This document shows positions 4,846 to 50,759 of a stretch of 64,000 nucleotides of DNA, in pieces (the first letter of the stretch is position 1; each line of letters starts with the position of its first letter). The translations under genes and the position numbers were made by a program. Source of the DNA: a virus (Duplodnaviria > Caudoviricetes); IMG/VR virus record IMGVR_UViG_3300028832_000112, positions 41,681 to 105,680 of that record, one strand, 5' to 3'. Under the pieces are notes generated by a model, which saw only the letters and a list, made by a program, of their open reading frames with translations, made no database searches and had not been told where the DNA came from.

Positions 4846-5661
4846 ATGGGTTTCAATATGCCTAAGACCAAAACAGTAGAACACGGCGAGATTACCTTAG
4901 AACAGCTCAATGAAATCAAGCGATGCGCAAGTGACTTGTCTTATTTCGCCAAGTACATAAAGCTCGAAAAGAATGGATATCCGATCAACTGGAGAGACTA
5001 CCAGCTTCGCGAGTTCGACATTCTCCAGAAGTACAACAACGTCATCCACAACTGGTGTAGGCAAGCTGGCAACCGATGGATCGAGGCCGCCTATGTGTTG
5101 TGGTACGTGACGTTCAACTCGTCTCGCTGCTGTGTGCTGTTGGATGTCAAGCATAGCATGGCCAAGGAACAGCTCGCGCTTATCAAGACGATGTACTTGA
5201 ACTTGCCGTGGTGGTTGAAGAAGGAAGCCGATTTCCATAAGATATACGCCACGTTCGGTTCTGGCATAGACAAATGCACCATATTCGTTGAGGCGTACGG
5301 CCTTGGTGGATTCCGTGGTAAGACGGTTAACTTGTTCATGTGTCGGAATTTTGCATTTGTCAAGGAATCCATAGCAAACGATTTCGCGGCTTCCGTATTT
5401 CCGGTACACATGTCAGGTAATCCGAAGAATCACCGCATGCTGATATCCTCTTGTCCAAACGGCAAGGGCAACTTGTTCCATCATCTGTGGAATAGTTGCA
5501 TCCAGCTGCCCAACGTGATTCAGCCGGAATCGACGTCGTTTGTCGGTACGGAAGTGACGTACAGCAAGCAAGTCAAGCCGTACGTGAAAAAGGACATGTC
5601 GAGCTTGCTTCCGCGCCACATCTACCTCGCCGAGTATGAATGTAAATTCGTGGACAGATAA
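4846..5661 (+). CDS. Terminase large subunit (T4 gp17-like) ATPase domain, catalytically degenerate, no nuclease domain
   Basis: CASDLSYFA, RDYQ, RQAG, FRGKT, FAF, SCPNG..NLFHHLW, EYECKF are colinear with gp17; Walker A GKT->GNR, Walker B DE->RN. Confidence 0.85.
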   Translation: MGFNMPKTKTVEHGEITLEQLNEIKRCASDLSYFAKYIKLEKNGYPINWRDYQLREFDILQKYNNVIHNWCRQAGNRWIEAAYVLWYVTFNSSRCCVLLDVKHSMAKEQLALIKTMYLNLPWWLKKEADFHKIYATFGSGIDKCTIFVEAYGLGGFRGKTVNLFMCRNFAFVKESIANDFAASVFPVHMSGNPKNHRMLISSCPNGKGNLFHHLWNSCIQLPNVIQPESTSFVGTEVTYSKQVKPYVKKDMSSLLPRHIYLAEYECKFVDR

Positions 5662-15681: not shown

Positions 15682-16028
15682 TGTTTTTGTCTGGATTGGC
15701 CGGGTTCGCCTTGGCTTGGATTATCGTCGGTATAGTGCATGCGGTAAAGACTCGCAAGAGTAAGAAACGGTACGAGTGGCTTGCCGAGGTCGACGGCGTT
15801 ACGTTCGTGATCGATACGTATGTGGTTGAATTGCTGTCCAAGGGTACTTTCGACGACTACTGCGACCGCCGCATCATCTTGAACAACATGCTGCAGTATT
15901 GCTATGGCATGATGGATGGCGGATGGAAGTCCGAGCATAAGGAAAAGGCGGCTCGTTGTGGCATAACCGTCGATACGGAGAACGAATCGCTCTCGTTCAC
16001 GCTTTCGCCGTTGAATTTGTCTGAATAA
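15678..16028 (+). CDS. Hypothetical membrane-anchored protein
   Basis: RBS GGAGGAG; N-terminal TM segment. Confidence 0.65.
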   Translation: MMFLSGLAGFALAWIIVGIVHAVKTRKSKKRYEWLAEVDGVTFVIDTYVVELLSKGTFDDYCDRRIILNNMLQYCYGMMDGGWKSEHKEKAARCGITVDTENESLSFTLSPLNLSE

Positions 16029-16047
16029 TATTTCGTCTCATAATAGG

Positions 16048-16076
16048 AAAGGGCCGGACAATGTCCGACCCTTTTT
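16048..16076. terminator. Terminator between convergent operons
   Basis: AAAGGGCCGGACA-A-TGTCCGACCCTTTTT. Confidence 0.7.
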
Positions 16077-16094
16077 GTTTGATTCAAGAAGAAC

Positions 16095-16853
16095 TTACTT
16101 GAGATAACTCGACAAGAACTCGTTGTGTTCTTGTTCGATCTTGATGGTTTCGTTGTTCTGGTCGATCATCTTCTGGATTTCTTCCTTGTCGTATTCGAGG
16201 AAGGATTCTTCGATGAAGCGAGCAATAAAGCGGTCGATGGCGTCGCCGTCGAAATCTTCGATCTTGTCGGCAGTGAGAACCAGAAGTCCGTCGCAGATGT
16301 CCAAGTTCGTCGGATAGATGTCGATCGAGTAGACGAACTTGCGCATGTACTCGTTGTAGATAAGCGATTCGTACAACGATACCTTGTTGTAGTCTTTGGA
16401 CATGTAGTCACCGAGCTTGGGGCTGCGTACGCAAAGTTCGGTCTCGTTGCTGTAGACCTTGTCGGAGAACCCGGCTTCCGGCTTGACGATGAACGGCATC
16501 TTCATGAAGTAGTTGGTGCCCTTGACTGGACGGAATCCGCCCTTGTTGTAGATGGACTGTCTGGTCTGCTCGTAGCATTCTTGCGTGTGCTTGCGCTTGG
16601 CGTCCATTTCTTCCTTCAGCTTGCCTTCCTTAGCCAGTTCGATCTTGTGTTCGATGTCGTTCACGATTTTGATCATTTCGGCCTCGTACTTGGCCTTCCA
16701 TGTCTTCTCGCGCCAGAGGAAAAAGACCTCGTAAAGTTCGGAACAGACAGTGGAACAGCGGATAGCCGTGTCCATTCCCCATTGTCCGTCGGCGGCTCGT
16801 TCGTTGCACCATGCGCTGAACTGCTTGAAGGTCATTGATTCGTATTTGCTCAT
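16095..16853 (-). CDS. Hypothetical protein
   Basis: MTFKQFSAWCNERAADGQWG phage-type N-terminus. Confidence 0.75.
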   Translation of the reverse strand: MSKYESMTFKQFSAWCNERAADGQWGMDTAIRCSTVCSELYEVFFLWREKTWKAKYEAEMIKIVNDIEHKIELAKEGKLKEEMDAKRKHTQECYEQTRQSIYNKGGFRPVKGTNYFMKMPFIVKPEAGFSDKVYSNETELCVRSPKLGDYMSKDYNKVSLYESLIYNEYMRKFVYSIDIYPTNLDICDGLLVLTADKIEDFDGDAIDRFIARFIEESFLEYDKEEIQKMIDQNNETIKIEQEHNEFLSSYLK

Positions 16854-17623
16854 TTGTTAGTCTCCTTGACTTTGTTGGGTTTCTTTTGGGCGAGTTTCTT
16901 CTTCGGCTTTTCGATGGCATGCAGCTGCTCGTAGATTTCGTGGAGGAATCCCTTGATGGTATCCACGCAGCTCTGCTCGGTCATTAGGCCGAACTCCAGC
17001 GTAGTCGCGGTCTCGTCGCTGGAAAGGATGAAGTGCGAAGGGTCGTCGAGGTCGCGGAAGTGTATTCCGCGCAGCGATGTCTTGTAGGTGAACTGCGCCA
17101 CGCCGCTGTGCGAATATGCGGCGAATGCGTCGCTGTTGCGCTGCATGTAGTTCGGATAAAGACCTTGGATGAAAAGACGGTCGTTGATGATTTCTACGGA
17201 AGTGACTACTCCGAAGAACGACTTGCCGACGTTGAACGAGAACTTGACTGTCTTTCCGATGCCGTTGTCCTTGAGGTACTTCAGCTTGCCTTCAATGAAC
17301 GCCTTTGCGGCCTTGTCAGCTTGCTCGATGGCCAAGTCGGAGATACGGCTGTCAAGCAAGGACAGCGTATTGGTTAGTTTGTCCTTGAGTATCTTCAGTC
17401 GTTCAAGGTCTAGTTCGCCAGTGCCTTCGGACAAGATGTTGTCGACGTTGCTCACCCAAGTAGTGGCGAGCTTTCCGTTGGCCATGGGGAACACGACCAT
17501 TCCGTCGTCGCGCTGGATTTCCTTCCTCGCGTGTACCCGCTTGCCGAGTCTAACTGTTTTCTGTTTCGAGACTTGAGCCACGTTGCATGCCTCCAAGTTA
17601 GTAAAGTTTAATTTGCATTTCAA
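16850..17623 (-). CDS. Hypothetical protein (coiled coil + beta domain family)
   Basis: Overlaps both neighbours by 4 nt. Confidence 0.7.
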   Translation of the reverse strand: MKCKLNFTNLEACNVAQVSKQKTVRLGKRVHARKEIQRDDGMVVFPMANGKLATTWVSNVDNILSEGTGELDLERLKILKDKLTNTLSLLDSRISDLAIEQADKAAKAFIEGKLKYLKDNGIGKTVKFSFNVGKSFFGVVTSVEIINDRLFIQGLYPNYMQRNSDAFAAYSHSGVAQFTYKTSLRGIHFRDLDDPSHFILSSDETATTLEFGLMTEQSCVDTIKGFLHEIYEQLHAIEKPKKKLAQKKPNKVKETNK

Positions 17624-18015
17624 CCGAAGAAGGCGAGTAATGCGCCCACGCCGCAGCCAATCAGGAATGCGATGATGTACTGTCCGATATTCTTCCAGTC
17701 GAGCTTTTGTTTGTACGGCTCGGCTTCGTCACCAGCTCCCCAGTAGTCGAACGCGAGGATGACGCCGTCTGGGTTAGGGCCTTGCGCGACGATGGTCTGC
17801 ACGGCAAATTCCATATCGTCCGCCGAGAAAGTCGCCTCGAAGATTTCATTCAACCAGCCAGCCTCGTCTTCGTGTGACTTGTTAAGAATGTCTTCGATCT
17901 GCGGAATGACTTGCGTACGGAACGCTGGTATTGCACGAGAAACGCCGGGTGTGGATTCGGCGTCGTCGATAAGGGTCGCGGTCTTTTTCTTGGGGTCGAT
18001 TTTTACTTTCAGCAT
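17620..18015 (-). CDS. Hypothetical protein with C-terminal TM helix
   Basis: MLKVKIDPKK start with RBS GAGGA, downstream of promoter. Confidence 0.7.
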   Translation of the reverse strand: MLKVKIDPKKKTATLIDDAESTPGVSRAIPAFRTQVIPQIEDILNKSHEDEAGWLNEIFEATFSADDMEFAVQTIVAQGPNPDGVILAFDYWGAGDEAEPYKQKLDWKNIGQYIIAFLIGCGVGALLAFFG

Positions 18016-18039
18016 AAGTGTCCTCGATAATTTGACCGA

Positions 18040-18102
18040 AATATAGCAATATAACGAAATTATGGCAAACGCATTGCCAACATTTTGCAATATTGCTATA
18101 TT
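18040..18102. promoter_or_regulatory. Divergent early promoter pair
   Basis: Minus: TTGCCA-N17-TATATT (18068-18040); plus: TTGCCA-N17-TATATT (18074-18102). Confidence 0.75.
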
Positions 18103-18266
18103 GAAGGCAAACTTTTCATAAACACAGCCGTCATTCAAGATACGAATGATAATAAACTTTATTATAGAATAAGTTAGTGGTATTTCTTGTTCTGATAAAA
18201 GAGTTTTTCGGTGCTCCGGTGACGTTAAATACCACAATAGGCGTTACCGGAGCACTTCTTGTTTGT

Positions 18267-19583
18267 ATGATAACGACCGCCCAGAAGATAATGTTGATAG
18301 TCGATAGCAAAACGGCAAGCGCGTTGAATCGCGCATGCGGCTGTGCTCGCTATGCATACAACTGGGCTAGGGATGCATGGTTTGCCAAGAAGGCCGCTGG
18401 GCAAAAAGTTGTGACGTGTGCAGAACTCCGCAAGGAGTTTAACGCACAGAAGTCTGACTGGATGTACGAGAGTCCAAAGGGCTCTATGGATCAAGCTATC
18501 AAGAACTTCGTTCTTGCCAAGAAACGGCATTACGAGAATCCAGAATTGTTCGGGTTTCCCAAGCGAAAGAAATACAAGTCAAACCGCTCATTCTACATAG
18601 AGAACGATAAAGCGAAGTTAATGGATGAATACCACATCAAGCTTCCCAAAATACCGAATCCAGTTAGACTGGCAGAGTCAGTACGACCAGAATGCCTATC
18701 CGGTAAGATAAACAACTTCGTCGTATCTAAGGGAAGCAACGACCGTTGGTACATCTCGATATCCTATACTTACGATGACACAAATAGTTTGTACGGAACT
18801 GGTGAGAATGGCCTTGTTGGCATAGACATTGGCGTTAAGACGCTGATGCAACTATCTACCAGCGAATGCGTCTCCAACGAGCATATCAACAAACGGCATT
18901 ATAAGCGACTTAAACGATATCAAAGGATGATGTCCCGCCGTACATACAATTCAGTCCACTACAAGGACATCAAGAAGACTTTTAATAAGAAGAATACTTA
19001 TATAAAGAACTACCGTAAGGACTTGATACATAAGGCTACTACAGAGATAGTCAAGCATAATATGGTCGTGGCCATAGAAGACTTGAATGTAAAGGGTATG
19101 ATGTCCAACCACAAGTTGGCGTCTGCAATTTCGGACTGCGGATTCGGCATGATCCGTAGGTTCCTAGAGTATAAAAGTGCCAAGTACGGAACGCTGCTCT
19201 TAAAAGTCGGGAGGTTCTTTCCGTCTTCAAAGAAATGTTCCGGATGCGGACATGTGAAAGAAAACCTTTCATTGTCCGAACGAGAGTTTATTTGCGAGGA
19301 ATGCGGACTGGCTATCGACCGCGATACCAACGCCGCAATCAACATACTCGCCGAAGCCTTGTTCAATGAACTAAATAAGAGATTCAATACCGACATTGCC
19401 CGTCGGAAATTCACGCCAGCGGACTTGGTAGCTCTGGCCTCTTCCCTTTCGGGAACTGGTGAACCTACCGAGGTCGATGCTCATCGTCTACTTACCAGAG
19501 ATGGTAGGACGGCTATGGTGGACGATTTCTTTAATCGTCTATGGAACCAAGTTGCCAACGCAACCATAAATTGCTATATTTAA
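18267..19583 (+). CDS. tnpB: RNA-guided endonuclease TnpB
   Basis: GCARYAYNW HTH; RuvC D (GIDIG), E (AIEDL), D (DRDTNAA); CSGC/CEEC Zn ribbon. Confidence 0.93.
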   Translation: MITTAQKIMLIVDSKTASALNRACGCARYAYNWARDAWFAKKAAGQKVVTCAELRKEFNAQKSDWMYESPKGSMDQAIKNFVLAKKRHYENPELFGFPKRKKYKSNRSFYIENDKAKLMDEYHIKLPKIPNPVRLAESVRPECLSGKINNFVVSKGSNDRWYISISYTYDDTNSLYGTGENGLVGIDIGVKTLMQLSTSECVSNEHINKRHYKRLKRYQRMMSRRTYNSVHYKDIKKTFNKKNTYIKNYRKDLIHKATTEIVKHNMVVAIEDLNVKGMMSNHKLASAISDCGFGMIRRFLEYKSAKYGTLLLKVGRFFPSSKKCSGCGHVKENLSLSEREFICEECGLAIDRDTNAAINILAEALFNELNKRFNTDIARRKFTPADLVALASSLSGTGEPTEVDAHRLLTRDGRTAMVDDFFNRLWNQVANATINCYI

Positions 19584-19584
19584 G
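19398..19584 (+). ncRNA. Putative omega RNA scaffold overlapping tnpB 3' end
   Basis: GGAAATTCACGCCAGCGGA start typical of tnpB 3' ends; several hairpins; boundaries approximate. Confidence 0.5.
19552..19580 (+). promoter_or_regulatory. Outward-facing early promoter at the tnpB right end
   Basis: TTGCCA-N17-TATATT with TTGC. Confidence 0.7.
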
Positions 19585-19636
19585 ACCTAGACAATACAGT
19601 CTATATCTTTATATACTTTTTAGGAGGCAGCCTATC

Positions 19637-19834
19637 ATGGGTGTTATTGAAATCTGGACTCTCGTATCCATCATCCTTCACTTCGCTGGCGTGGAAAACT
19701 TCAAGGACTGGCCAGTCATCGCATGGCCGACCACTTGGTCTTGCATGTGCCTTGAACTCTGGATGCTCATCGTCTACGCTGTAATCATCGTCGGCGTTGT
19801 CATTACGGCAATCTTCGCCGCGAGAAAGCGATAA
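19637..19834 (+). CDS. Small membrane protein
   Basis: RBS AGGAGG; two TM segments. Confidence 0.7.
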   Translation: MGVIEIWTLVSIILHFAGVENFKDWPVIAWPTTWSCMCLELWMLIVYAVIIVGVVITAIFAARKR

Positions 19835-20109
19835 TGGCTGATTACTTTAAGACATTTACTCCAGTTATCGACGGCAACTATACTGCGATTGTCGACGATA
19901 ACGGAGTAGAAGTATTCCGCTATAATCATGTACAGGTGGCGATGATGCTTACCCCAGAGGAAATACAGCATGCCACAACACTTTGCCTCCAAGATCGCAT
20001 ACGCGGCGGCTGGAGAGGCGATATCCTTCATCCGGAGCCTTACAATGTCACAGAAGCTAACGATGACGCTGTTCCGCGAATTCTTCCAGAACAAGGTCAA
20101 GAACATTGA
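19834..20109 (+). CDS. Hypothetical protein
   Basis: TAATG coupling to previous gene. Confidence 0.6.
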   Translation: MADYFKTFTPVIDGNYTAIVDDNGVEVFRYNHVQVAMMLTPEEIQHATTLCLQDRIRGGWRGDILHPEPYNVTEANDDAVPRILPEQGQEH

Positions 20110-20425
20110 GTGGCCGTCGTTCAACATGATGAAGTCCTCTGGACGAATCGTGGTGGACATCGCCGAGCCGCTTTCCTATGGTGCGACGGACGAGCCGTAC
20201 CACGGAATGTTCACGATCAGCTATGACACGAAAACCAAGTATGCCAAAGTCGTAGGGGAAATGTCCGACCTTCCGGACAGTCCCAAGAACCTCGACACGG
20301 TTGAAGACCTCGACAACTTCTATACCGAGTTCTACAACAAGCTGAAGTCTCGCGTCGTAAGCGTCAACTGCCACCTCGAAATGGACACCTACTGCATGCA
20401 CGGCGTCGAAAAGGACTACACATGA
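20045..20425 (+). CDS. Hypothetical protein
   Basis: GGAG RBS before MSQKLT; overlaps previous gene by 65 nt. Confidence 0.6.
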   Translation: MSQKLTMTLFREFFQNKVKNIEWPSFNMMKSSGRIVVDIAEPLSYGATDEPYHGMFTISYDTKTKYAKVVGEMSDLPDSPKNLDTVEDLDNFYTEFYNKLKSRVVSVNCHLEMDTYCMHGVEKDYT

Positions 20426-21189
20426 TCATCCGATTCTACTCTCCGATGACGGTGAAGTGCGAAACTCCGCGCTACGTCATCCCTGGCGAACTGGTGTCCG
20501 TTCTGGACTCGCTTCCGGTCAAGTGCCAGAAGCATTTCGACGACATCGCCGAGTTTTTCGGCGAGCACTATCTCATGGAAACCCACGAGAAGAACTACGC
20601 AGTACATTCGGTAGTTCCGATGCCTTGCATCCACAACGCGCTTCCGTACATCTGCTGGCTCGTCGCCGTCGAAGTCAAGTTCAATCCAGACTACAAGCCG
20701 TTCGACGTGCAGCAGTGCATATTGGAACTCCGAAAGGCCATCGACGGTCAGATCTCTGACGGCTGGGGAGAAGGCTTGGAACAGGAGCACATCAATCTTC
20801 AAGGCGACGTGTATTCCGTACGCTGCAGCGCCGTCGACAGAGTCGCTTGGCCGGGAATCTGGTGTGACGGAACTACCTTGTTGCCGTGTACCGATACGCT
20901 GTATGGAAAGGCTGGCGTCCGTCCTACGATGATGCGCCACGGCTGGCTCGATCCGGAAGCGTTCGACTATCTCTGTGCCGACATTCTCCGCTGGGTTCAG
21001 TCTACGGATGCAGTACGCAAGTGCGTCAAGACCGTGGACTCGCTGATCGAGAACTACAAGGTCGACGCACCTTACATCCAGTCCACGATCGACTGGCTCC
21101 GCAAGCGGACTAATGACACTGATCGTATCAAACAATATACAAAGGTGTACGACAAGATGGAAAGGGTACGCCATGAAGGAATAAAGTAA
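20422..21189 (+). CDS. Hypothetical, GQISDGWGE family (paralog of 41085-41942)
   Basis: IRFYSP...IDGQISDGWGEG. Confidence 0.75.
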   Translation: MIIRFYSPMTVKCETPRYVIPGELVSVLDSLPVKCQKHFDDIAEFFGEHYLMETHEKNYAVHSVVPMPCIHNALPYICWLVAVEVKFNPDYKPFDVQQCILELRKAIDGQISDGWGEGLEQEHINLQGDVYSVRCSAVDRVAWPGIWCDGTTLLPCTDTLYGKAGVRPTMMRHGWLDPEAFDYLCADILRWVQSTDAVRKCVKTVDSLIENYKVDAPYIQSTIDWLRKRTNDTDRIKQYTKVYDKMERVRHEGIK

Positions 21190-21296
21190 TGTCAAAGAAA
21201 AAGATGATTTTGTGCGCCGCTGGCGTTGTCATCGGTGTCCTCGGTATCGGTTTGGCGAACGCCACCATGTACTGGATCACTGCCACTAAGGAGTAA
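21189..21296 (+). CDS. 35-aa single-TM peptide
   Basis: MSKKKMILCAAGVVIGVLGIGLANATMYWITATKE; TAATG coupling. Confidence 0.6.
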   Translation: MSKKKMILCAAGVVIGVLGIGLANATMYWITATKE

Positions 21297-21298
21297 AC

Positions 21299-21736
21299 AT
21301 GTCTCGTAAACACATCTTCACATACGTTATCGGAATCATTGTCGGTTTCCTCGTATTCTGCGCTGTCGATACGGCAATTCACTACAATTCGACGCTTGAC
21401 GTAAACGTCCAGTGCTTCCAGCTCAAGGTTGACGAAGGCGCGAAGCCGAAGGCTGTCGTGTACGAGCCATCCAACGGCATCGCTGAAGTCTGGAAGGGCG
21501 TCTGCGAAACTGACGTGCTTCCCAAGGCAAGCAAGGAGAAGTGGACTAACTTGCATCCGCTAGAAACCCTCGTTGCTGGATTGCTGGCGGTCGCAGCGCT
21601 TTTCGTGGGCCTCATGGTTATTTTGTTCTATTTAATCATTGGGGTTCTTGTTAGTTTGTACAGATGGGCGTTCAATCCGCTATATGACGACCAGTCTATT
21701 ATCAGCGTCTACATCGACTTCGTCAAACACCCGTAG
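21299..21736 (+). CDS. Hypothetical membrane protein
   Basis: RBS AAGGAG; N- and C-terminal TM segments. Confidence 0.7.
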   Translation: MSRKHIFTYVIGIIVGFLVFCAVDTAIHYNSTLDVNVQCFQLKVDEGAKPKAVVYEPSNGIAEVWKGVCETDVLPKASKEKWTNLHPLETLVAGLLAVAALFVGLMVILFYLIIGVLVSLYRWAFNPLYDDQSIISVYIDFVKHP

Positions 21737-21744
21737 GAGACAAA

Positions 21745-22608
21745 ATGGCCTATAAGATTTTGCAACTTTCTGATATCCACCTCGGTTCCGACTACGAAGG
21801 AAACTTGGACACCAAGAAGCAGTGGAAGGCTGTCCTCAAGGACGCCAAGATCACTGGCGGATATGATGCCGTCATCATCACTGGCGACTTGCTTGACGAC
21901 AAGGTAAATGTCGATCCGGCTAACAACGCCAAAAGCGGCAAGGAACTTACTGACGAAGGTAAGCTCGGCAAGTACAAGGACATTCTCTACGATGCCAAGA
22001 GTTTGTGCGGATCTAGCGGCAAGCTGCTCGTGACACCGGGCAACCACGACAACCGCAAGCTTCTTGCGAAGGCCGCCGTCAGCATGGGCGTTGACAACGC
22101 TCGCGAGGATATGTTCGATAAACCGGGCGAGCACATCCAGTTTGCTCATATAGGTTCAAGAACCATCGTCTTGATTGACTCTGGCAACGGAGAACCGTAC
22201 AAGGCCCTCGCCGAACTCGCATATATGGCAAACCGCAACAAAGATTGGAAGCGTGACATGACGATGATCTTTACGCACAAGCCGTTCCAGTCTCCGAACT
22301 TGTACCACCGATTCATGAAGGACAACATGCTGCCGATCGATGTTTGCCATCATGCGGTTCAGTATGCGTCCGAATACTTCTGTGGCCATCTGCACCACTA
22401 TGCATCGGTTCACGCAAGGCTTGCCGACAACGATTTCTGCATGACGGTCGCCCCTGGCATCCAGTGCCAGATCGACCCCTATTCTGCAAAGTGCAACGCG
22501 GTTCCGCTTCCGGGCTACTTGACCATCACGTTCAACAACTACGATTCCATTGTCGAGAAGCGTATCCATATCGTTGAGAACTGGCAAGAACTCGCAGAAC
22601 AGAATTAA
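21745..22608 (+). CDS. Calcineurin-like metallophosphoesterase (CpdA/Icc-like)
   Basis: SDIH, TGDL, PGNHD, FTH, CGHLH motifs. Confidence 0.88.
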   Translation: MAYKILQLSDIHLGSDYEGNLDTKKQWKAVLKDAKITGGYDAVIITGDLLDDKVNVDPANNAKSGKELTDEGKLGKYKDILYDAKSLCGSSGKLLVTPGNHDNRKLLAKAAVSMGVDNAREDMFDKPGEHIQFAHIGSRTIVLIDSGNGEPYKALAELAYMANRNKDWKRDMTMIFTHKPFQSPNLYHRFMKDNMLPIDVCHHAVQYASEYFCGHLHHYASVHARLADNDFCMTVAPGIQCQIDPYSAKCNAVPLPGYLTITFNNYDSIVEKRIHIVENWQELAEQN

Positions 22609-22693: not shown

Positions 22694-22734
22694 AGAGGCA
22701 AATTGTAAACAATATGAAACAAAGAGGACACAGC

Positions 22735-25700
22735 ATGAAATACTGGTTGACTTTCATCCTCGCTCTGGCCATGTCGGTATTCGCTGCCGACTTGAGACCG
22801 TTCCATTTCGACAAGGTGGCGGACGACCACGAGGCGCAGCAAGAGGAATTCGAATACATGCTCAAGTACAAGCTCTTCGGACGCGACTACTTGACTATGG
22901 GCCGCCGTGTCATCATTCCAGACAAGTCTGGCTGGAACGGTAGCGCCAACGACATCACGTCGGCTGAACAGCTGTCAATCGGTGGCCCGACCCTCGCTGG
23001 CGGTTCGATCTCCGTAGGCGACGGATGCAAGTTCACCACGGGCCCTATCCGAGCCACGTCCATGACGGCTGGCAATGACAATGGCGCACACTACTTCGCT
23101 GGAACCGTATGCTTGGCCAATACGGCGGTTTCCAATGCCGTACAGACTGGTATCAACCGCGCACAAGGCACTCTCACCAGTACATGCCCAGAAGTGCCAG
23201 CGGCACCGACTAACTTGTCCATACCGACGGTTCCGTGGCCGACGACCGGATACCAAGACGATATCATCATCGACCAGAACTACGGCGTCGCCTACATCGA
23301 CGTGCCGGACGGAACCGACCAGTATGACCTCTATTACGACAAGATTCACTTAAACCGAGAGAGCAAGAACGCACCGGGCAAGGAAGGCGCTACTTTGTAC
23401 ATCCGCATGCAAGACGGCGGTCGTCTGACTCGTATCTTCGTGCATGACCTACAGATCGGAAACCACACGTCCATCCGAGTCGTGTACCGTACGGCCAACG
23501 GAGATTCCATCTTGCCGCAAGACGAATACCGTGGTAACGTGCTTATCTATTCCGACGGCGACATTTCGTTTGTAAATACAGACAACACGCCAATACAAGG
23601 TTCGTTCCTCAGCACGGCGGAAATCTCGCTGCAGTGCAACCTCGACTTCTCTGGACAGCTGCTTGCGAACAAGCTGTACATCGGTGACGACTTCAAGGGA
23701 GACCACTTCCACTTCGTCATCTATGACCCGGACACGCTCGATATCGACCCTACGCTCAACAAGGACGGCGGACTTCGCGAGAACGACTCTACGGTGGTTC
23801 TCCCTATCCAGCTTTCCGATACGGCGACCGTCGACGTGTTCTTCAAGTTCTGCTTTGACCTGAAGGACGGCGTCACCGTCGATGACTTCAACATGGTTAC
23901 GGATTTCCCTATCTGTGGAACCGACTCGCCGAAGACCCTAGTCATCCCTACTGGCAAGAAGGTTCCCACCGAGCTGATCAAGGTAAACGTAAAGAAAGAT
24001 ACATTGACCGAGCCGAACGACTACCTCGTATTGAAAATCTCCATTGAGTCTGGAGCTGTCCTTCCGAACAACAAGACGGACGGCGAACTCCGCGTGAAGA
24101 TTATCGACGCCGACGTGGCCAAGAAGCTCTCGTTCGACACTACCGCCGTGTACACCGAGAAGGAAAACTACACTGGCATTGTGGACAACATAAAGATTGT
24201 CAACTATTCCGATGATGTGAAGTTCTATCTGGACTCCGCGTTCACTGGCCGTTACTCCATCGACGAGACCACTGGCGTCATTACTCTGCTGACTCCGGTC
24301 GACTACGAGACGACTCCTATCGACACCATCAAGGTGACTGTCAAGGACACTGGCGACGTGGCAATTACTGGCTATATCCCCATTTCCGTAATCGACATCA
24401 ACGAGAAGCCGATACTCAACGATACCACGCTCGTATTCAGCGAGAATACTCCGATACCGACTATCGTGGGCGTTCTGAAGGCTACCGACGAGGACACCAA
24501 TCCGAACTATAGCAAGAACGAATATTCCATCATGGAAGGCAGCAGCCACTTCGTCATCGATTCGAAGACTGGCCGCATCACCACGTCCAAGGTTTTCGAC
24601 TACGAGACCGATACCACCGAGTTCGTGCTCAAGGTATTGGTGGCCGACATTGGACAGCCGACCGTGCTCTACGACACCGCCTTCGTGACTATCCGCGTGA
24701 AGGACGTGAACGAGGTTCCGACGGTCAAGAACCAGACGTTCCATATTCCAGAAAACGTTATCGACACCGTAGGCAAGGTAAGCGGCGTCGATCCGGAAGG
24801 TAATAAGCTGACGTATGTAATCACCAACGACGTTCCGTTCAAGATCGACTCGAACGGAGTCATTACAAACACAAAGCCGTTCGACTACGAGACCAGGAAG
24901 GATTACTTGGTGAAGGTCGACGTATCGGACGGAACCTACATCATACCGATTGAAGTCAAGGTAATCGTCGACGACGTGGACGAGCCAGTGCATGCGCACG
25001 ACACTACGCTCACCGTGGACGAACGCCAGACTGGCCCCATCGGCAAGGTGACTGGAGAGGACGAAGATGGAAAGCCTGTTAAATTTAGTGGAAGTGATAC
25101 TCTACATTATAATATTCATCCTACTACTGGTGTGGTGGAAGTGGTAAAGCCGTTCGACTACGAGACGACCAAGGTCGATACCTTGCTCGTGTTCGTGGAG
25201 GACGTGAACGGCAACATCGACACCGCTACAGTCGTGGTCAAGGTGAACAACGTAAACGACCCGCCGAAGCTGCAGCCGAACGATTCATTGACTGTGCCGG
25301 AAAACTGCAAGAATTGCATCGTGGGCATCATTACGGCGACTGACCCAGACAAGGATCATATCAAGTACGAAGTGGCCGAGAAGGGCTTCACCATCGACTC
25401 CAGCGGCGTACTGAAGCTTACCGACCCGGTCGACTACGAGAAGACGCCGACAGTGAAGGTGACTGTAATCGCATCCGATCCGTCTGGCGCTGCTGACACC
25501 ATGACCTATACGGTGAAGGTGACTGACATCAACGAGCCAGTCCATGTGAAGGACACCACTTGCTCCGTCGCCGAGAATGTCACTGGGCCGACTGGCTGCA
25601 AGGTGACTGCTTGGGACGAGGACAAGACTACTCCGAAGTTCACCGTGACCGACACTACTCGTTTCGGCATCGACTCCACTGGCGAAATCATCGTCAAGCA

Positions 25701-27555
25701 GCCGTACGACTACGAGAAGAAGACCAAGGACACAGTGACCGTCATCGTTACGGACGGCGAGTTCTCTGACACGGCCACTGTCGTTATCAAGGTTATCGAC
25801 GTTCCAGAAAAGACCGAGATTACCGAGGTAGATGACCAGCCGAAGCAAGACACCATCAGGACGAACGATCCAGACCACAAGATCGACTACAAGATCTGTG
25901 AGGACAAGAAGTGCATCGTTGACAGCATCCCGGTGACGACCCACAAGGACACCGTGGTCAAGGTATGCAACGAGAAGAAGACTTCTTGCGACCAAGTGGT
26001 TATCTTGTTCAGTGACGCTCCTCCGGTGGTCATCCTCAAGAATACCGAGAATACCACGGCCTTGATCGACTACATCACCATCGAGGAAAAGAAGGACGAC
26101 CACATCTATGTGAACAAGAAGGACAACGCTCTCCAAGTGACCGTCAAGGACACCGTCCACAAGACGGAAAAGCACTTCGATATCGACGTCAAGCTTGATA
26201 CCGTGTCCGTGAAGACGTCCCACGTCAAGGACTACAGCTATCTGGTAGACGAGAGCAATGCCACCGTTACGCCCATAGGCGGCGGTCTGGCGGAAGTCTC
26301 CGAGACTATCAAGGTGGATGGCGTCAAGGTGACTATCACGAAGGTCGTCAATGCCAAGACGATGGATCCAGTGGACACGACGCAGACGGTGTCTTACAAG
26401 ACCACCGAAGGCGGCAAGGAAGTCACGATTACCTACACTACGGACAACCTCACTGGTCAGCGCATTTCCGACTACCATGTTTCGTACAACATTGATTCTT
26501 GCACCACGGTCTCCTATGACCTCGATGACAAGAAGAAGGTCGTGAAGAACAAGGAAGGAAACGTCGCTTATACGGTCAAGTACGACTACACCGACGAGTA
26601 TGGCAACAAGGCTTCTGCCGAAGTCGAAATCGTATTCGACGACATTCCGCCGAAGGTCGAGATCCGTACGCCGAACTCGATGGAACGCTTCAACACGAAC
26701 GCCATCAAGGTCGAGTGGACTGTCAACGGAGTAACCCAGGATACGCTTAATCTGCAGCGTCTTGAGAAGGGCTTGAACTACGTAATCCGCCGTTACGTGG
26801 ACAAGGCTGGAAACGTGGCCGCCGATACTGTAGCGGTATTCATGGCCGAGGCGAAGGATATCGACATTTCCATCATCAACCCGGTCACCAAGGTTGACCA
26901 AGACAAGGTTGACGAATACTATGCCGACCACAAGTACGACGCCAAGAATCCGTACAGCATCCAGTTCACCGATCCGGACTCCAGTAAGTTGCCTGAGACC
27001 ATCGGCATCGGCTTCAAGATCGACATCGTGCTTCCTAGCGTTTCTGCAACTGGCGGACTCGCTACGCTTGACGATATCGTGAAGAATGGCCAGATCCCAG
27101 TCGACGACAAGGGCAACATCGTGGGCGCTTCCACGAAGGGAATCCCGGTCGACCAGTATGTGGAAGAACACTGCACCGACGAGTTCAAGAAGGATTACAA
27201 GAAGCACGGTCTCGACATTCCTCTGTATGACGTGACCTACAACCTTCACCTCTGGGTGTTTACCACGCAAGCCAACTACGTGAACGACTTCCGCGTCGAA
27301 TACAAGCTCAATGACCAAGCCAAGGTGACGGACGCCGGAACTGTCCAGATGGTTCTTGACTGGCTGACCGACAAGGAAGGCAACGTGAAGGCCAAGAACG
27401 GTCACGCCATGGGCACTGGAGCCTATATCACCAAGCTTGAGTCCAAGTCCATCGCCAAGCACCGCTGCGACTACAAGGAGCAGAAGAAGGGCGACAAGAC
27501 GGTCAAGAAGGAAGACGACATGACTACGTTCGGCTACAAGAGGCCGACAAAGTAA
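22735..27555 (+). CDS. Secreted cadherin-repeat protein, Fibrobacter type
   Basis: Signal peptide MKYWLTFILALAMSVFA; six DYE..(D/N)(I/V)(N/D)(E/D).P cadherin repeats; Calx-beta-like segment; basic C-terminus FGYKRP. Confidence 0.88.
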   Translation: MKYWLTFILALAMSVFAADLRPFHFDKVADDHEAQQEEFEYMLKYKLFGRDYLTMGRRVIIPDKSGWNGSANDITSAEQLSIGGPTLAGGSISVGDGCKFTTGPIRATSMTAGNDNGAHYFAGTVCLANTAVSNAVQTGINRAQGTLTSTCPEVPAAPTNLSIPTVPWPTTGYQDDIIIDQNYGVAYIDVPDGTDQYDLYYDKIHLNRESKNAPGKEGATLYIRMQDGGRLTRIFVHDLQIGNHTSIRVVYRTANGDSILPQDEYRGNVLIYSDGDISFVNTDNTPIQGSFLSTAEISLQCNLDFSGQLLANKLYIGDDFKGDHFHFVIYDPDTLDIDPTLNKDGGLRENDSTVVLPIQLSDTATVDVFFKFCFDLKDGVTVDDFNMVTDFPICGTDSPKTLVIPTGKKVPTELIKVNVKKDTLTEPNDYLVLKISIESGAVLPNNKTDGELRVKIIDADVAKKLSFDTTAVYTEKENYTGIVDNIKIVNYSDDVKFYLDSAFTGRYSIDETTGVITLLTPVDYETTPIDTIKVTVKDTGDVAITGYIPISVIDINEKPILNDTTLVFSENTPIPTIVGVLKATDEDTNPNYSKNEYSIMEGSSHFVIDSKTGRITTSKVFDYETDTTEFVLKVLVADIGQPTVLYDTAFVTIRVKDVNEVPTVKNQTFHIPENVIDTVGKVSGVDPEGNKLTYVITNDVPFKIDSNGVITNTKPFDYETRKDYLVKVDVSDGTYIIPIEVKVIVDDVDEPVHAHDTTLTVDERQTGPIGKVTGEDEDGKPVKFSGSDTLHYNIHPTTGVVEVVKPFDYETTKVDTLLVFVEDVNGNIDTATVVVKVNNVNDPPKLQPNDSLTVPENCKNCIVGIITATDPDKDHIKYEVAEKGFTIDSSGVLKLTDPVDYEKTPTVKVTVIASDPSGAADTMTYTVKVTDINEPVHVKDTTCSVAENVTGPTGCKVTAWDEDKTTPKFTVTDTTRFGIDSTGEIIVKQPYDYEKKTKDTVTVIVTDGEFSDTATVVIKVIDVPEKTEITEVDDQPKQDTIRTNDPDHKIDYKICEDKKCIVDSIPVTTHKDTVVKVCNEKKTSCDQVVILFSDAPPVVILKNTENTTALIDYITIEEKKDDHIYVNKKDNALQVTVKDTVHKTEKHFDIDVKLDTVSVKTSHVKDYSYLVDESNATVTPIGGGLAEVSETIKVDGVKVTITKVVNAKTMDPVDTTQTVSYKTTEGGKEVTITYTTDNLTGQRISDYHVSYNIDSCTTVSYDLDDKKKVVKNKEGNVAYTVKYDYTDEYGNKASAEVEIVFDDIPPKVEIRTPNSMERFNTNAIKVEWTVNGVTQDTLNLQRLEKGLNYVIRRYVDKAGNVAADTVAVFMAEAKDIDISIINPVTKVDQDKVDEYYADHKYDAKNPYSIQFTDPDSSKLPETIGIGFKIDIVLPSVSATGGLATLDDIVKNGQIPVDDKGNIVGASTKGIPVDQYVEEHCTDEFKKDYKKHGLDIPLYDVTYNLHLWVFTTQANYVNDFRVEYKLNDQAKVTDAGTVQMVLDWLTDKEGNVKAKNGHAMGTGAYITKLESKSIAKHRCDYKEQKKGDKTVKKEDDMTTFGYKRPTK

Positions 27556-27572: not shown

Positions 27573-27611
27573 AAAGGCTGCCTAGACAATAGGCGGCCTT
27601 TTTGCTATATT
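27573..27611 (+). promoter_or_regulatory. Terminator fused to leaderless early promoter
   Basis: AAAGGCTGCCT-AGACAAT-AGGCGGCCTTTTT contains TAGACA(27583)-N17-TATATT(27606); ATG 7 nt later. Confidence 0.75.
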
Positions 27612-41084: not shown

Positions 41085-41942
41085 CTATAGTTCCTTGATA
41101 TATTCGAGTAGTTCCTGGACTTCCTTGTTCTTCTTTGCGTCCTTGCCCAAGAAAGTCATTGTGTGCAATGCCATATTCTTGGCGAATGTTTCAGACGTGC
41201 CGTACCAGCTGTTAAGGTTGTCGGAAATCTCGTCGAATGCCCTACGACCGTCGCTCGCCCACCTATCGTCTGCGACGAGCGGCTTCCATACCTTGTAGTA
41301 CATTTCCATCTTTTGATTGCTAGAATCACTACGCCCGATGAGAAAACCGTCCTTGAACAAGTTTCCGTTGTATACATCTTTATAGTCGGATCCGCCCCAT
41401 AAAGGAATAACGATGGAGGAATGAGGCTTTCCCTTGCTGTCATAGGCAAGTCCGTTCACTTCTGCGAAGTGTACAGAAGCGGGTTTCAGTGAAATGCCTT
41501 CATCGTCGTAGTCGACTTCCTTCAGTCCGCCGTGGTCGAAGTTGAACTTCAGTGAGAAGTTTTCTCCCCAGCCGTCGGAAATCTGTCCGTCCAAGTCTTC
41601 TTTGAGACCATCAAGGTAGGGACGGATCGTTTTCTTGTTCATCAAGTCACTGGGCTTTCCGCAGCATAGCTGTTCGTCGATCGTCGCCATGAAGCAGACA
41701 TATAGCTTTCCGTCCCTAACGGTCACGTGCTGCGTGATGTCGATGACGTGAGCTCGCAAGTCCGGCAGCAAGTGGTGGAGACATTTTGCAAGGGACAGCT
41801 CCGTGTCGAATTCGAACACGGCCAGCTTTGTCTCGATTATGTCGATTAGCTTGACAGTCTGCTCGGCGGTAAGGTCTACCGGATATCCGTCCTCGTCTTC
41901 GATGTAAAACGGTGCTAGGAATCTGATTTGGGTGTGGAACAT
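41085..41942 (-). CDS. Hypothetical, GQISDGWGE family
   Basis: IRFLAP...LDGQISDGWGEN. Confidence 0.75.
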   Translation of the reverse strand: MFHTQIRFLAPFYIEDEDGYPVDLTAEQTVKLIDIIETKLAVFEFDTELSLAKCLHHLLPDLRAHVIDITQHVTVRDGKLYVCFMATIDEQLCCGKPSDLMNKKTIRPYLDGLKEDLDGQISDGWGENFSLKFNFDHGGLKEVDYDDEGISLKPASVHFAEVNGLAYDSKGKPHSSIVIPLWGGSDYKDVYNGNLFKDGFLIGRSDSSNQKMEMYYKVWKPLVADDRWASDGRRAFDEISDNLNSWYGTSETFAKNMALHTMTFLGKDAKKNKEVQELLEYIKEL

Positions 41943-49310: not shown

Positions 49311-50759
49311 GCGGTCGCAAGCTCACACCCTTTAGGGTGTGGGTAAGACCCGCAGTAACAAATGTAAGAAATAAATAACATTAGAAAGCCTCACAATTAT
49401 TGTATATTTGAGTTAAGATACTATAAACTTTAATTGAAGTCAAGAAATTTAACATGGAAGCGATAAGAAGCGAAGATACGAAGGCTAAGATACGGGCGAG
49501 CATGTCCGCAACGAAGGCCAGACGGCAGACACAAGTCTGCCGAGTATTCGAGCTTAAAGTTTCCATACGGCACAACCCGAAATCGGTGTTCGATAAGATG
49601 TCCCAATGCTTCAAGGAAGCGAAATGGGTAATTAACGACATGCTGTCGCTATCCAAGGATAATCCCGACAACAGTATGTTCGACTACAAGTACACCGACC
49701 ATAAGGATGTTGTTCATTATGACAAGGACAAGAATGCGGTCACGTCGTCAATCACCTTGCCTTCCGTCCTCCATCGAGCGACAGTTGCCCAGAAGAAGAC
49801 CGACATAGTGAACTTGGCCAAGGCAAAGTCACATGGCCGAAAGATTGGCGCATTGAAGTTCAAGCGACAAGTGGACTGCATACCCATTATCACTGGTTTC
49901 ACACAGATTATTGATGGTTGTCGTATAACTATTCCTGGGTTCAAGAAAATCCGTGTAAACGGGTTAAACCAGCTTCACCAGTTCGAAACATTTGAACTAG
50001 CCGATGCCAAGCTGGTTCGCAAGGCATCTGGCTATTATGTAAAGATTAGCATAATGCTTCCGAAATCATCAAGGAAACCTACCAACCGAGAGGTTGGTCT
50101 TGATTTCGGAATAAAGGATTCCATAACGACATCAAACGGCGACAAGTACAACTGCAAAGTGCAAGAATCGGAACACCTGAAGTACCTTTCAAAAATGTTG
50201 AACAGGCACAAGACAGAGAAGGGTTCCAAGCGGCGTTGGAGATGTAAGTGTCAACTGGCTAGGGAATATGAACATTTGGCAAATATACGAAAGGATATTG
50301 CCAACAAGATATACAACAGGCTAGTAACCGATTATGATGTTATCTACTTCCAAGATGAGCAGATTAAGAACTGGCAGAAAGGGTTGTTCGGCAAGTCCGT
50401 ACAGTCTTCCTGTCTAGGTTCGTTGAAACAACGACTTGTCGCTCTCGAAGCGAGTGGACGTAGTTTCAAAATCTCAAAGTGGGAACCTACCACCAAGCTA
50501 TGTCCGATGTGTGGTTGCATAAACCACCCGACACTTGCAGACCGAATCTACAAGTGCGATTGCGGATATACGATGGACAGGGACATCCATTCTGCTCGCG
50601 TAGTCTTGATGATTGGCTCGTCTAAAAGAGCCGAGTGCATGGAACATGCCTCCGCTGAGGTAGCCGCCTCTATGCCTCCCAGTTCTACTGGGTTAGCACA
50701 AGTGGCTCCGTCGAAGCGAAAACTCGAAGCTCACAGCCTTTAGGCTGTGGGTAGTTCAC
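49305..50759 (+). mobile_element. IS200/IS605-family (IS1341-like) non-autonomous element
   Basis: TTGAC target 5' of left end; subterminal hairpins CTCACACCC-TTTA-GGGTGTGGG and CTCACAGCC-TTTA-GGCTGTGGG; right end GTAGTTCAC. Confidence 0.88.
49454..50743 (+). CDS. tnpB: RNA-guided endonuclease TnpB
   Basis: GLDFG, YFQDE, DRDIHSA RuvC motifs; CPMC..CDC Zn ribbon. Confidence 0.9.
   Translation: MEAIRSEDTKAKIRASMSATKARRQTQVCRVFELKVSIRHNPKSVFDKMSQCFKEAKWVINDMLSLSKDNPDNSMFDYKYTDHKDVVHYDKDKNAVTSSITLPSVLHRATVAQKKTDIVNLAKAKSHGRKIGALKFKRQVDCIPIITGFTQIIDGCRITIPGFKKIRVNGLNQLHQFETFELADAKLVRKASGYYVKISIMLPKSSRKPTNREVGLDFGIKDSITTSNGDKYNCKVQESEHLKYLSKMLNRHKTEKGSKRRWRCKCQLAREYEHLANIRKDIANKIYNRLVTDYDVIYFQDEQIKNWQKGLFGKSVQSSCLGSLKQRLVALEASGRSFKISKWEPTTKLCPMCGCINHPTLADRIYKCDCGYTMDRDIHSARVVLMIGSSKRAECMEHASAEVAASMPPSSTGLAQVAPSKRKLEAHSL

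Follow-up and report, generated by a model that had tools for sequence, protein, structure and literature searches.

The window analysed here is the whole 64,000-nucleotide (nt) stretch of Caudoviricetes DNA covering positions 41,681 to 105,680 of the IMG/VR record IMGVR_UViG_3300028832_000112, and our subject is a tnpB gene at 18267-19583 together with the sequences on both sides of it. CheckV rates the 105.7-kilobase (kb) contig of this record as only 26% complete, so the host is a large phage, a jumbo phage of the rumen; the public runs containing the contig are labelled bovine gut metagenomes. An earlier reading, made from the sequence alone (hereafter the sequence-only reading), had described the locus as an IS607-like element inserted just behind a phage promoter, which it was thought to rebuild at its right end. 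The features of the locus are as follows.

18040 to 18068, minus strand: phage sigma70-type promoter, TTGCCA-17-TATATT with TG, of the divergent upstream gene (17620-18015).
18074 to 18102, plus strand: left promoter, TTGCCA-17-TGCTATATT, of the phage type (10/12, with TG), now facing the tnpB leader.
18103 to 18112, no strand: left breakpoint zone, at which the homology with intact relatives sets in; the match to the related copy L006 starts at 18112.
18112 to 18266, plus strand: tnpB leader, the inner part of the left end, with an invariant ATAAACT box (18152-18158).
18177 to 18255, plus strand: leader pseudoknot with a 14-base-pair hairpin (18211-18224 with 18242-18255), kept in 8 of 8 copies.
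18267 to 19583, plus strand: tnpB, 438 amino acids, with HTH_OrfB_IS605, OrfB_IS605 and Cas12f1-like_TNB domains; RuvC D/E/D residues and zinc finger intact.
19382 to 19565, plus strand: structured core of an omega-type guide-RNA scaffold, from covariation among 13 copies.
19551 to 19564, plus strand: right-end hairpin 1, GTTGC-CAAC-GCAAC, containing the "-35" TTGCCA and covarying as GTCGC with GCGAC in L018 and L039.
19552 to 19580, plus strand: right-end promoter-like box, TTGCCA-17-TGCTATATT, lying 50 nt inward from the true end; the -10 of the subfamily is TATATT or TATGTT.
19588 to 19603, plus strand: right-end hairpin 2, TAGAC-AATACA-GTCTA, covarying; the guide of the sequence-only reading.
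19601 to 19621, plus strand: two direct subterminal repeats, CTATATCTTT and ATATACTTTTT (CTATACTTTT twice in relatives).
19622 to 19630, plus strand: right terminus AGGAGGCAG, with the Shine-Dalgarno sequence AGGAGG (TGAGG or CGAGG in relatives).
19631 to 19650, plus strand: flank that would serve as the omega-RNA guide, CCTATCATGGGTGTTATTGA, covering the start codon of the next gene.
19637 to 19834, plus strand: downstream gene of 65 amino acids, its ATG 6 nt past the end of the element.

The tnpB gene is bracketed by two 15-mers, ATTGCTATATTGAAG at 18092-18106 and ATTGCTATATTTAAG at 19570-19584, placed as the sequence-only reading had noted. Each is preceded by TTGCCA at 17-nt spacing, both carry the TG of an extended -10 and score 10/12 in a promoter scan, and the stop codon of tnpB (TAA, 19581-19583) lies inside the right one. 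The observation itself was thus confirmed. These 15-mers are not the ends of the element. They are two copies of the phage's own promoter consensus, TTGCTATATT, of which the window holds about 21. That is, WTTGCTATATT occurs 21 times in the window against 0.54 expected, so that the bracket consists of two instances of a phage-wide promoter, and by identity this pair reached only rank 16 of 231 promoter pairs. In the phages hosting close relatives of the element the consensus was found in 51, 32, 12 and 7 copies, compared with 0-1 in the control.

The phage promoter is often paired divergently and often stands exactly 6-7 nt ahead of an ATG. At least 11 genes of the window look leaderless in this way, with TTGCTATATT, exactly 6-7 nt and ATG (positions 27602, 31464(-), 37341(-), 37365, 42381(-), 42406, 47431, 55495(-), 55519, 61736(-) and 61768), and many of these promoters form divergent pairs offset by about 32 nt.

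The right end of the element was located by comparison with its relatives. A protein search of viral contigs gave three close copies (L003/L022, L004/L018 and L006; about 90% amino acid identity) and one at 69% (L005/L015), and the terminal motif TATACNTTTTANGAGGCAG was used to scan viral and metagenome contigs for further copies. The nucleotide homology of the relatives to the window extends from 18112 or 18152 up to 19630-19634, and all their flanks are unrelated. In 14 distinct contexts, namely the window copy and 13 others, the flanks all diverge right after GAGGCAG. Read contigs gave three further right-end junctions, CAG^TAGAAAATG, CAG^GGTTAATG and CAG^TCTAAATG, where the caret marks the junction. 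The true right end is G19630 (...GAGGCAG^), 46 bases past 19584, where the sequence-only reading had placed it; 19585-19630 is therefore element rather than flank or guide. It follows that the empty site predicted earlier (TATATTGAAG^ACCTAGACAATAC) falls inside the element. The guide predicted earlier, ACCTAGACAATACAGTC, is conserved element sequence belonging to hairpin 2, whose variants are TAGGC with GCCTA in L022, TAGGT with ACCTA in L027 and a G-U pair in L018. From TnpB biology (PMC10690162, PMC11061315) and the position of the right end, the guide would instead be 19631-19650.

Between the two hairpins, the conserved 20-nt linker CATAAATTGCTATATTTAAG that follows hairpin 1 comprises the extended -10 and the tnpB stop codon. 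The direct repeats at the right end (two copies of CTATAC(N)TTTT, with TATAC/GTATAG motifs at the left end) are candidate TnpA-binding repeats. The terminal AGGAGG of the window copy lies 9 nt before the ATG at 19637 and is stronger than the GAGG of the relatives.

The right-end motif was found nowhere else in the window, even at 3 mismatches. Its 23 matches in 185,579 species genomes are chance occurrences, because none fits the hidden Markov model of the omega RNA, and they were reused as controls. We also considered whether the last ~55 nt could be a phage leader that the element targets; this was rejected, since the motif is unique in the window, occurs once per contig and stands ahead of unrelated genes. 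In L021 (4560-4614) the right end has been reduced to its last ~52 nt, from the -10-like box to GAGGCAG. They lie between the stop codon of one gene and the next ATG 8 nt downstream and make up the entire intergenic region; the stretch looks like a remnant retained as an intergenic expression signal.

The family to which the element belongs could be assigned from two relatives. In L015 and L037, a tnpA of 207 amino acids with HTH_17 and Resolvase domains immediately precedes a 69%-identical tnpB and overlaps its start, and both copies have the same left motif and right end. This combination of a helix-turn-helix domain and a serine recombinase identifies the family as IS607, in agreement with the earlier proposal. 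The architecture of IS607 includes the lack of inverted repeats and of target duplication, a 2-base-pair core and subterminal direct repeats (PMC6188088). The ends of the present family, GGAG^ATAGTATCTAGT... and ...GAGGCAG^, do not form inverted repeats. In the remaining tnpB-bearing copies, that of the window among them, tnpA has been lost and about 230 nt of left end and leader retained, and three tnpB-less minis of 457-498 nt (L019, L025 and L023) have both ends and the same omega-type RNA in common with them. As noted previously, tnpA is missing here; no homologue was found across the whole 105.7-kb contig. The statement that terminal hairpins are lacking holds for those of the IS605 type, but other hairpins exist, namely that of the leader (14 base pairs, 18211-18255) and the two small ones at the right end.

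Intact copies start as ...(A)GGAG^ATAGTATCTA(A/G)T..., and their flanks differ before GGAG. The (A)GGAG was found ahead of the left end in 10 of 12 intact copies (the exceptions are L015, with AT, and L031, with TGAG), and AG closes the right end in all copies. An AG core, as had been suggested, fits the junctions of the family (GGAG^ on the left and GGCAG^ on the right), but these are at other positions than the 15-mers. Published crossover cores of IS607 elements are GG (PMC6188088, PMC10690162), and the target-adjacent motif (TAM) of IS607 TnpB was 5'-AGGAG in 18 of 22 strains (PMC11061315). In CboIStron, TGGG is both the TAM and the target of TnpA, and the right end, TCGG, departs from it at -3 (PMC10690162); the same G/C contrast at -3 is seen here between GGAG on the left and GCAG on the right.

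When the flanks of copies were joined in silico, textbook ribosome-binding sites were obtained: AACAAGGAG^ACTAGATATG, ATAAGGAG^GCCATTTATG and TTGGAGGAG^GAAGAAAATG. The mini L023 allowed a direct comparison, because the 407-amino-acid gene downstream of it has orthologues in many phages without the element. Excised L023 is colinear with the empty sites L045-L048 and L054, with no target duplication, and the excision restores GGAG-N8-ATG as well as an upstream protein tail, KVEMEKSA*, like the VESEKK* of the orthologues. For this one mini, alignment with element-free orthologous sites thus confirms both junctions.

The lineage was detected only in phage and metagenome contigs, although the 185,579 species genomes were also scanned. 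The 186-kb contig of L019 (G004) encodes five TnpB and three IS607-type TnpA homologues, and the 260-kb phage with L004 (G002) one TnpA homologue; such large phages are heavily colonised by these elements.

Then the placement of the copies relative to genes was evaluated. In 9 of the 14 contexts, an open reading frame of at least 40 amino acids (mostly 100-400) begins 2-10 nt past the right end. The null rate for such a placement per position at the same loci is 0.11 (binomial P = 3e-6), and among the chance-motif controls 5 of 31 had a nearby start (Fisher P = 0.002). At the three read-derived junctions a potential start codon, ATG, lies 5-6 nt past the end. The copies are therefore strongly over-represented, relative to chance, at positions 2-10 nt ahead of start codons, and because the genes start at this distance, the terminal GAGG is at the position of a Shine-Dalgarno sequence. 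The sequence-only reading had expected insertion at promoters; the 11 other copies with an intact left end sit just past (A)GGAG, a few bases before a start codon. Similarly, it had proposed that the element uses the phage promoter. A phage-type promoter does stand in front of tnpB in the window, but none of those 11 copies lies behind a plus-strand promoter.

Taken comprehensively, we think it likely that the stretch from ~18104/18112 to 19630 is a tnpA-less, left-truncated copy of an IS607-family TnpB/omega-RNA element that belongs to large phages sharing one host-type promoter, TTGCTATATT. The mechanism that we propose is the following. The serine-recombinase TnpA would insert the element at the AG of a Shine-Dalgarno GGAG, and the insertion would part this Shine-Dalgarno sequence from its ATG. 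The terminal GAGG (AGGAGG in the window copy) would substitute for the displaced sequence, and in the subfamily of the window an extended -10 promoter 50 nt inside the end may restart transcription. With a new Shine-Dalgarno sequence and promoter, insertion between tightly packed phage genes would be nearly neutral. On genomes without the element, TnpB with its RNA would cut AGGAG together with the region where the following gene starts, and the cut might lead to the element being copied in by recombination during co-infection. In the window copy, a later deletion or recombination would have removed the left terminus and fused the tnpB leader to a phage promoter, leaving a truncated copy that would be fixed and no longer movable by TnpA. 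The earlier idea of a harmless insertion is thus kept in spirit. The earlier interpretation was wrong about where the element ends, about its empty site and guide, about how the right promoter arose and about a preference for promoters; as a whole it is partly supported.

The TnpB of the window looks active. Its alignment to ISDra2 TnpB (8EXA) showed that GIDIG (D), AIEDL (E), DRDTNAA (D) and both CxxC pairs are kept, as the sequence-only reading had stated for the RuvC residues; with the catalytic D, E and D present, the protein does not belong to the TldR class. The residues of ISFba1 (8IAZ) that contact the TAM were uninformative (N121 aligns with N, and K83 with D). The C-terminal ~72 amino acids of TnpB are encoded within the omega-RNA region. 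When 13 copies were folded together with RNAalifold over about 270 nt, 42 pairs were predicted, 26 of them with compensatory changes. This covariation shows an RNA of ~250 nt that overlaps the 3' end of tnpB and reaches the right end. Rfam searches of 17900-19800 at E up to 10 and of the minis at E up to 0.1 found no RAGATH-18, group I intron or other family, and the output consisted only of sub-threshold microRNA-like noise on the promoter palindrome. Sixteen nt, GATGCTCATCGTCTAC, are repeated exactly and in direct orientation, at 19476-19491 in the omega-RNA core and at 19762-19777 inside the downstream 65-amino-acid gene. The relatives carry CATTGCTTAC at that place in the RNA, and the window variant breaks a conserved pair; the repeat may be a short conversion tract.

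In the leader, the hairpin loop AAATACCAC (18227-18235) pairs with the upstream 9-mer GTGGTATTT (18177-18185) to form the pseudoknot. Among 8 copies all cells of the 23 pairs are paired (100%, compared with 37-47% in slid controls), and 8 pairs have compensatory changes. The pseudoknot is followed by a U-rich run and then by the tnpB ATG, which has no Shine-Dalgarno sequence. We infer that the structure may be an attenuator or a translational control of tnpB.

The ATAAACT box of the leader is invariant in 8 of 8 element leaders and also occurs at other places in the window. Plus-strand intergenic boxes are at 5661, 7742, 10134, 18152, 22687 and 49423, several of them directly behind terminator-like T runs and ahead of genes. 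ATAAACT is a candidate middle or late promoter of the phage; the motif count itself is not enriched. The window holds a second, unrelated TnpB of 429 amino acids (49454-50743; element 49319-50756) with OrfB_IS605 and TNB domains, which shares 23% identity with the first. Two hairpins that are nearly the same, AAGCTCACACCCTTTAGGGTGTGGGTAAG and AAGCTCACAGCCTTTAGGCTGTGGGTAG, flank it, and the element looks to be of the IS200/IS605 type with both ends; ATAAACTTTA is common to the two tnpB leaders. Elsewhere in the window (22714-27555) the phage encodes a 1613-amino-acid protein with several cadherin repeats (Pfam Cadherin and Cadherin_4).

The left side of the window copy was compared with its closest leader relative, L006 (88% identity over 467 nt), the left end of which is intact. 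Of the canonical left end (AG-ATAGTATCTAGT...), the outermost ~61 nt are missing from the window copy, so that the clean insertion supposed by the sequence-only reading is not what the locus contains. Upstream of 18112 the similarity is non-significant (a score as high was obtained with 193 of 500 shuffles). On its left the copy adjoins a divergent promoter pair of the usual phage kind; the minus-strand promoter at 18040-18068 is a 76% inverted repeat with the plus-strand one, and such pairs are found repeatedly in the window. A second sample, at 100% identity, and relatives at ~93% identity have the left and right junctions at the same places. In those relatives (from three runs, one of them an RNA library), ~150 nt at 19815-19967, spanning the end of the 65-amino-acid gene and the start of the next gene, are swapped for 145-148 unrelated letters. 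Since neither the copy nor the contig encodes tnpA, the copy is non-autonomous, and neither nhmmer nor tblastn found a second copy or mini in the contig. The window copy is old, fixed and probably immobile, with its nuclease and RNA intact.

A megablast search of GenBank phages with 16000-22000 gave no match, and for the gene downstream of the L018 copy the search for orthologues returned only itself. The empty site of the window locus is inferred to be ...(A)GGAG^CCTATCATG (CCTATCATGGGTG). An original site consisting of a leaderless promoter-N7-ATG (TATATT + GCCTATC + ATG) was considered and rejected; it suits the phage, but intact family copies follow GGAG.

Several points weigh against our reading. 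Five of the 14 contexts have no nearby start of an open reading frame. The stretch TATATTGAA is common to the left promoter and the left-end consensus, so the true breakpoint may be as much as 13 nt to the left. There is no TnpA that would indicate past or present mobility in this phage. An element-free allele of the window locus was found neither among relatives of the flanking genes, nor by an exact search for the downstream gene start in viral contigs, nor in reads, which leaves the original target and the past of the left junction conjectural; no read contig skips the element, but because rare variants are lost from contigs, this does not argue that such an allele is absent. As for the proposed promoter, the right-end box also encodes the tail of TnpB and lies between two covarying hairpins of the guide-RNA 3' region, and its conservation could be unrelated to transcription. 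L022 has a 3-nt deletion in the box, and the canonical form is absent in L015, L037 and the minis.

One alternative is that the copy has been domesticated, with the phage keeping TnpB and its fixed guide under an early-type promoter not as a transposon but as a weapon against related element-free phages (marker exclusion). The left end is truncated and yet the reading frame, the catalytic residues and the RNA are intact; the recurrence of the same junctions in the second sample and the ~93% relatives, and the strong phage promoter upstream, also fit. Such domestication, however, is not separable from ordinary homing by TnpB with the present data, and the idea overlaps our reading rather than excluding it. 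We regard it as doubtful, but as a serious candidate.

Next, the origin and function of the right-end box have to be considered. The box, TTGCCAAC..AAATTGCTAT(A/G)TTTAAG, is common to copies in other phages whose TnpB is 69-91% identical, and its TG is present in all tnpB-bearing copies but L022. Being shared by the whole tnpB-bearing subfamily, the box predates this insertion; this distribution shows that it is ancestral to the subfamily. That is, the outward promoter-like box of the sequence-only reading does exist, but it was not rebuilt by insertion here. No promoter of the window fits the phage consensus better than this box. In the last nine codons of tnpB the synonymous sites are invariant across 69%-identical copies, which means a constraint at the nucleotide level, although its source may be RNA rather than a promoter.

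Thus the box might be a conserved single-stranded linker of the guide RNA and/or coding sequence for the TnpB tail, with the boundaries of the element unchanged. The downstream gene would then be read through tnpB from the left promoter (or the ATAAACT box), and only the terminal Shine-Dalgarno sequence would matter. The place of the box between the hairpins agrees with this, and so does the lack of a plus-strand terminator between tnpB and the next gene; in L022 neither the TG nor the spacing is preserved, and all that the minis show is a -10-like stretch rich in A and T. The invariant synonymous sites would be expected under any RNA or DNA constraint. Against it, the box is the consensus of ~20 working-looking phage promoters (10/12 with TG), many of them 6-7 nt before leaderless ATGs, and promoter activity is slightly favoured by L021, where the intergenic DNA ahead of a gene consists of nothing but the part of the right end running from the -10-like box to GAGGCAG. 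RNA-library contigs span 19432-19630 of a related copy; being contigs, they have no bearing on transcription, strand or ends. Weighing these points, we find the linker explanation unlikely and lean towards the box being active as a promoter.

It might also be supposed that the left promoter region is the copy's own variant left end, so that the element is complete and brought or evolved both promoters. The sharing of TATATTGAA with the left-end consensus AAATATATTGAAATG, the rare -35 TTGCCAAC common to the left promoter and the right end, and the fact that the left promoter is an inverted copy of the neighbouring minus-strand promoter could be cited for this. In contrast, every intact relative, including L006, has the GGAG^ATAGTATCTAGT terminus that is missing here, no significant alignment was obtained upstream of 18112, and the minus-strand promoter serves a phage gene, divergent pairs being a habit of this phage. 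We consider this explanation very unlikely.

Finally, the model of the sequence-only reading (element 18107-19584, inserted at a transcription start, with an AG core at the 15-mers, a rebuilt promoter and the guide ACCTAGACAATACAGTC) has next to no chance of being right: the 15-mers and the two full promoters are real and a phage promoter does precede tnpB, but 19585-19630, which is conserved in 13 other copies with unrelated flanks, holds a covarying hairpin and subterminal repeats, the right-end box is also in copies of other phages, other copies do not lie behind promoters, and the promoter pair is no more alike than many unrelated pairs. That reading had itself named junctions elsewhere, and other copies away from promoters, as what would speak against it, and both were found.

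Returning to the IS607-type element, we tentatively offer a broader view of it, to which we give somewhat less than even chances. This phage-restricted IS607 lineage may have a right end that acts as a portable expression cassette, with an extended -10 promoter, a short leader and a Shine-Dalgarno sequence, while the TnpA target and the TnpB TAM would be the Shine-Dalgarno sequence itself. Expression would then be restored at once, the guide would be aimed at the start regions of genes in rival, element-free phages, resulting in homing or exclusion during co-infection, and decayed copies would leave the cassette as intergenic DNA, as in L021.

IS607 TnpB elements and the AGGAG TAM are already known. 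That the AGGAG TAM is a Shine-Dalgarno sequence is apparently not spelled out in the literature searched, in which we also found no description of a Shine-Dalgarno or promoter role for the right end; a lineage that inserts between the ribosome-binding site and the start codon and brings a replacement together with a promoter-like box likewise seems not to be described there. If true, this would be a second route to harmless insertion beside IStron splicing. It would explain the persistence of transposons in gene-dense phage genomes, and some phage intergenic regions may be leftovers of such elements. The data also yield a new omega-RNA family, which is compact and includes naturally occurring minis without tnpB, and a tnpB leader whose conserved pseudoknot may regulate production of the nuclease. 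The practical result is corrected boundaries and a corrected guide prediction for the window element.

Insertion sequences with an outward terminal promoter, such as IS10 with pOUT and ISAba1, can drive the adjoining gene and activate neighbours by accident. Here, by comparison, the promoter-like box is joined to a terminal Shine-Dalgarno sequence, with a strong bias to positions 2-10 nt before start codons.

ISDra2 of the IS200/IS605 family is the best match among solved structures (8EXA/8H1J), and has the same domain order, the same catalytic residues and an omega RNA over the 3' end of tnpB. By sequence the TnpB of the window is closer to that of ISDra2 (E = 2e-41) than to that of ISFba1 (E = 8e-32). 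However, ISDra2 has a Y1 TnpA, subterminal hairpins, single-stranded transposition and a TTGAT TAM, whereas here we found a serine TnpA in relatives, ends without matching hairpins and a GGAG flank; the element is thus not of the IS200/IS605 type.

CboIStron and other IS607 IStrons (Zedaveinyte et al., PMC10690162) resemble the present family in the TnpA-S/TnpB pair, in the identity of the TAM with the TnpA target and in the contrast at -3. Their insertion is made harmless by the splicing of a group I intron; here the Rfam scans found no intron, and the insertion would be made harmless by the re-supply of a Shine-Dalgarno sequence and perhaps of a promoter.

The ISFba1 group of IS607 TnpB (Ren et al., Cell Res 2024, PMC11061315; PDB 8IAZ) has, like the present family, a serine TnpA (here in relatives), an intact RuvC and zinc finger, and a structured guide RNA overlapping the 3' end of tnpB, and its measured TAM is the (A)GGAG of the left flank described here. 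The RNA of the present family differs from that of the ISFba1 group in matching neither RAGATH-18 nor any other Rfam family. The lineage is further distinguished by being found only in phage and metagenome contigs, and by a right end with a Shine-Dalgarno sequence and a promoter-like box.

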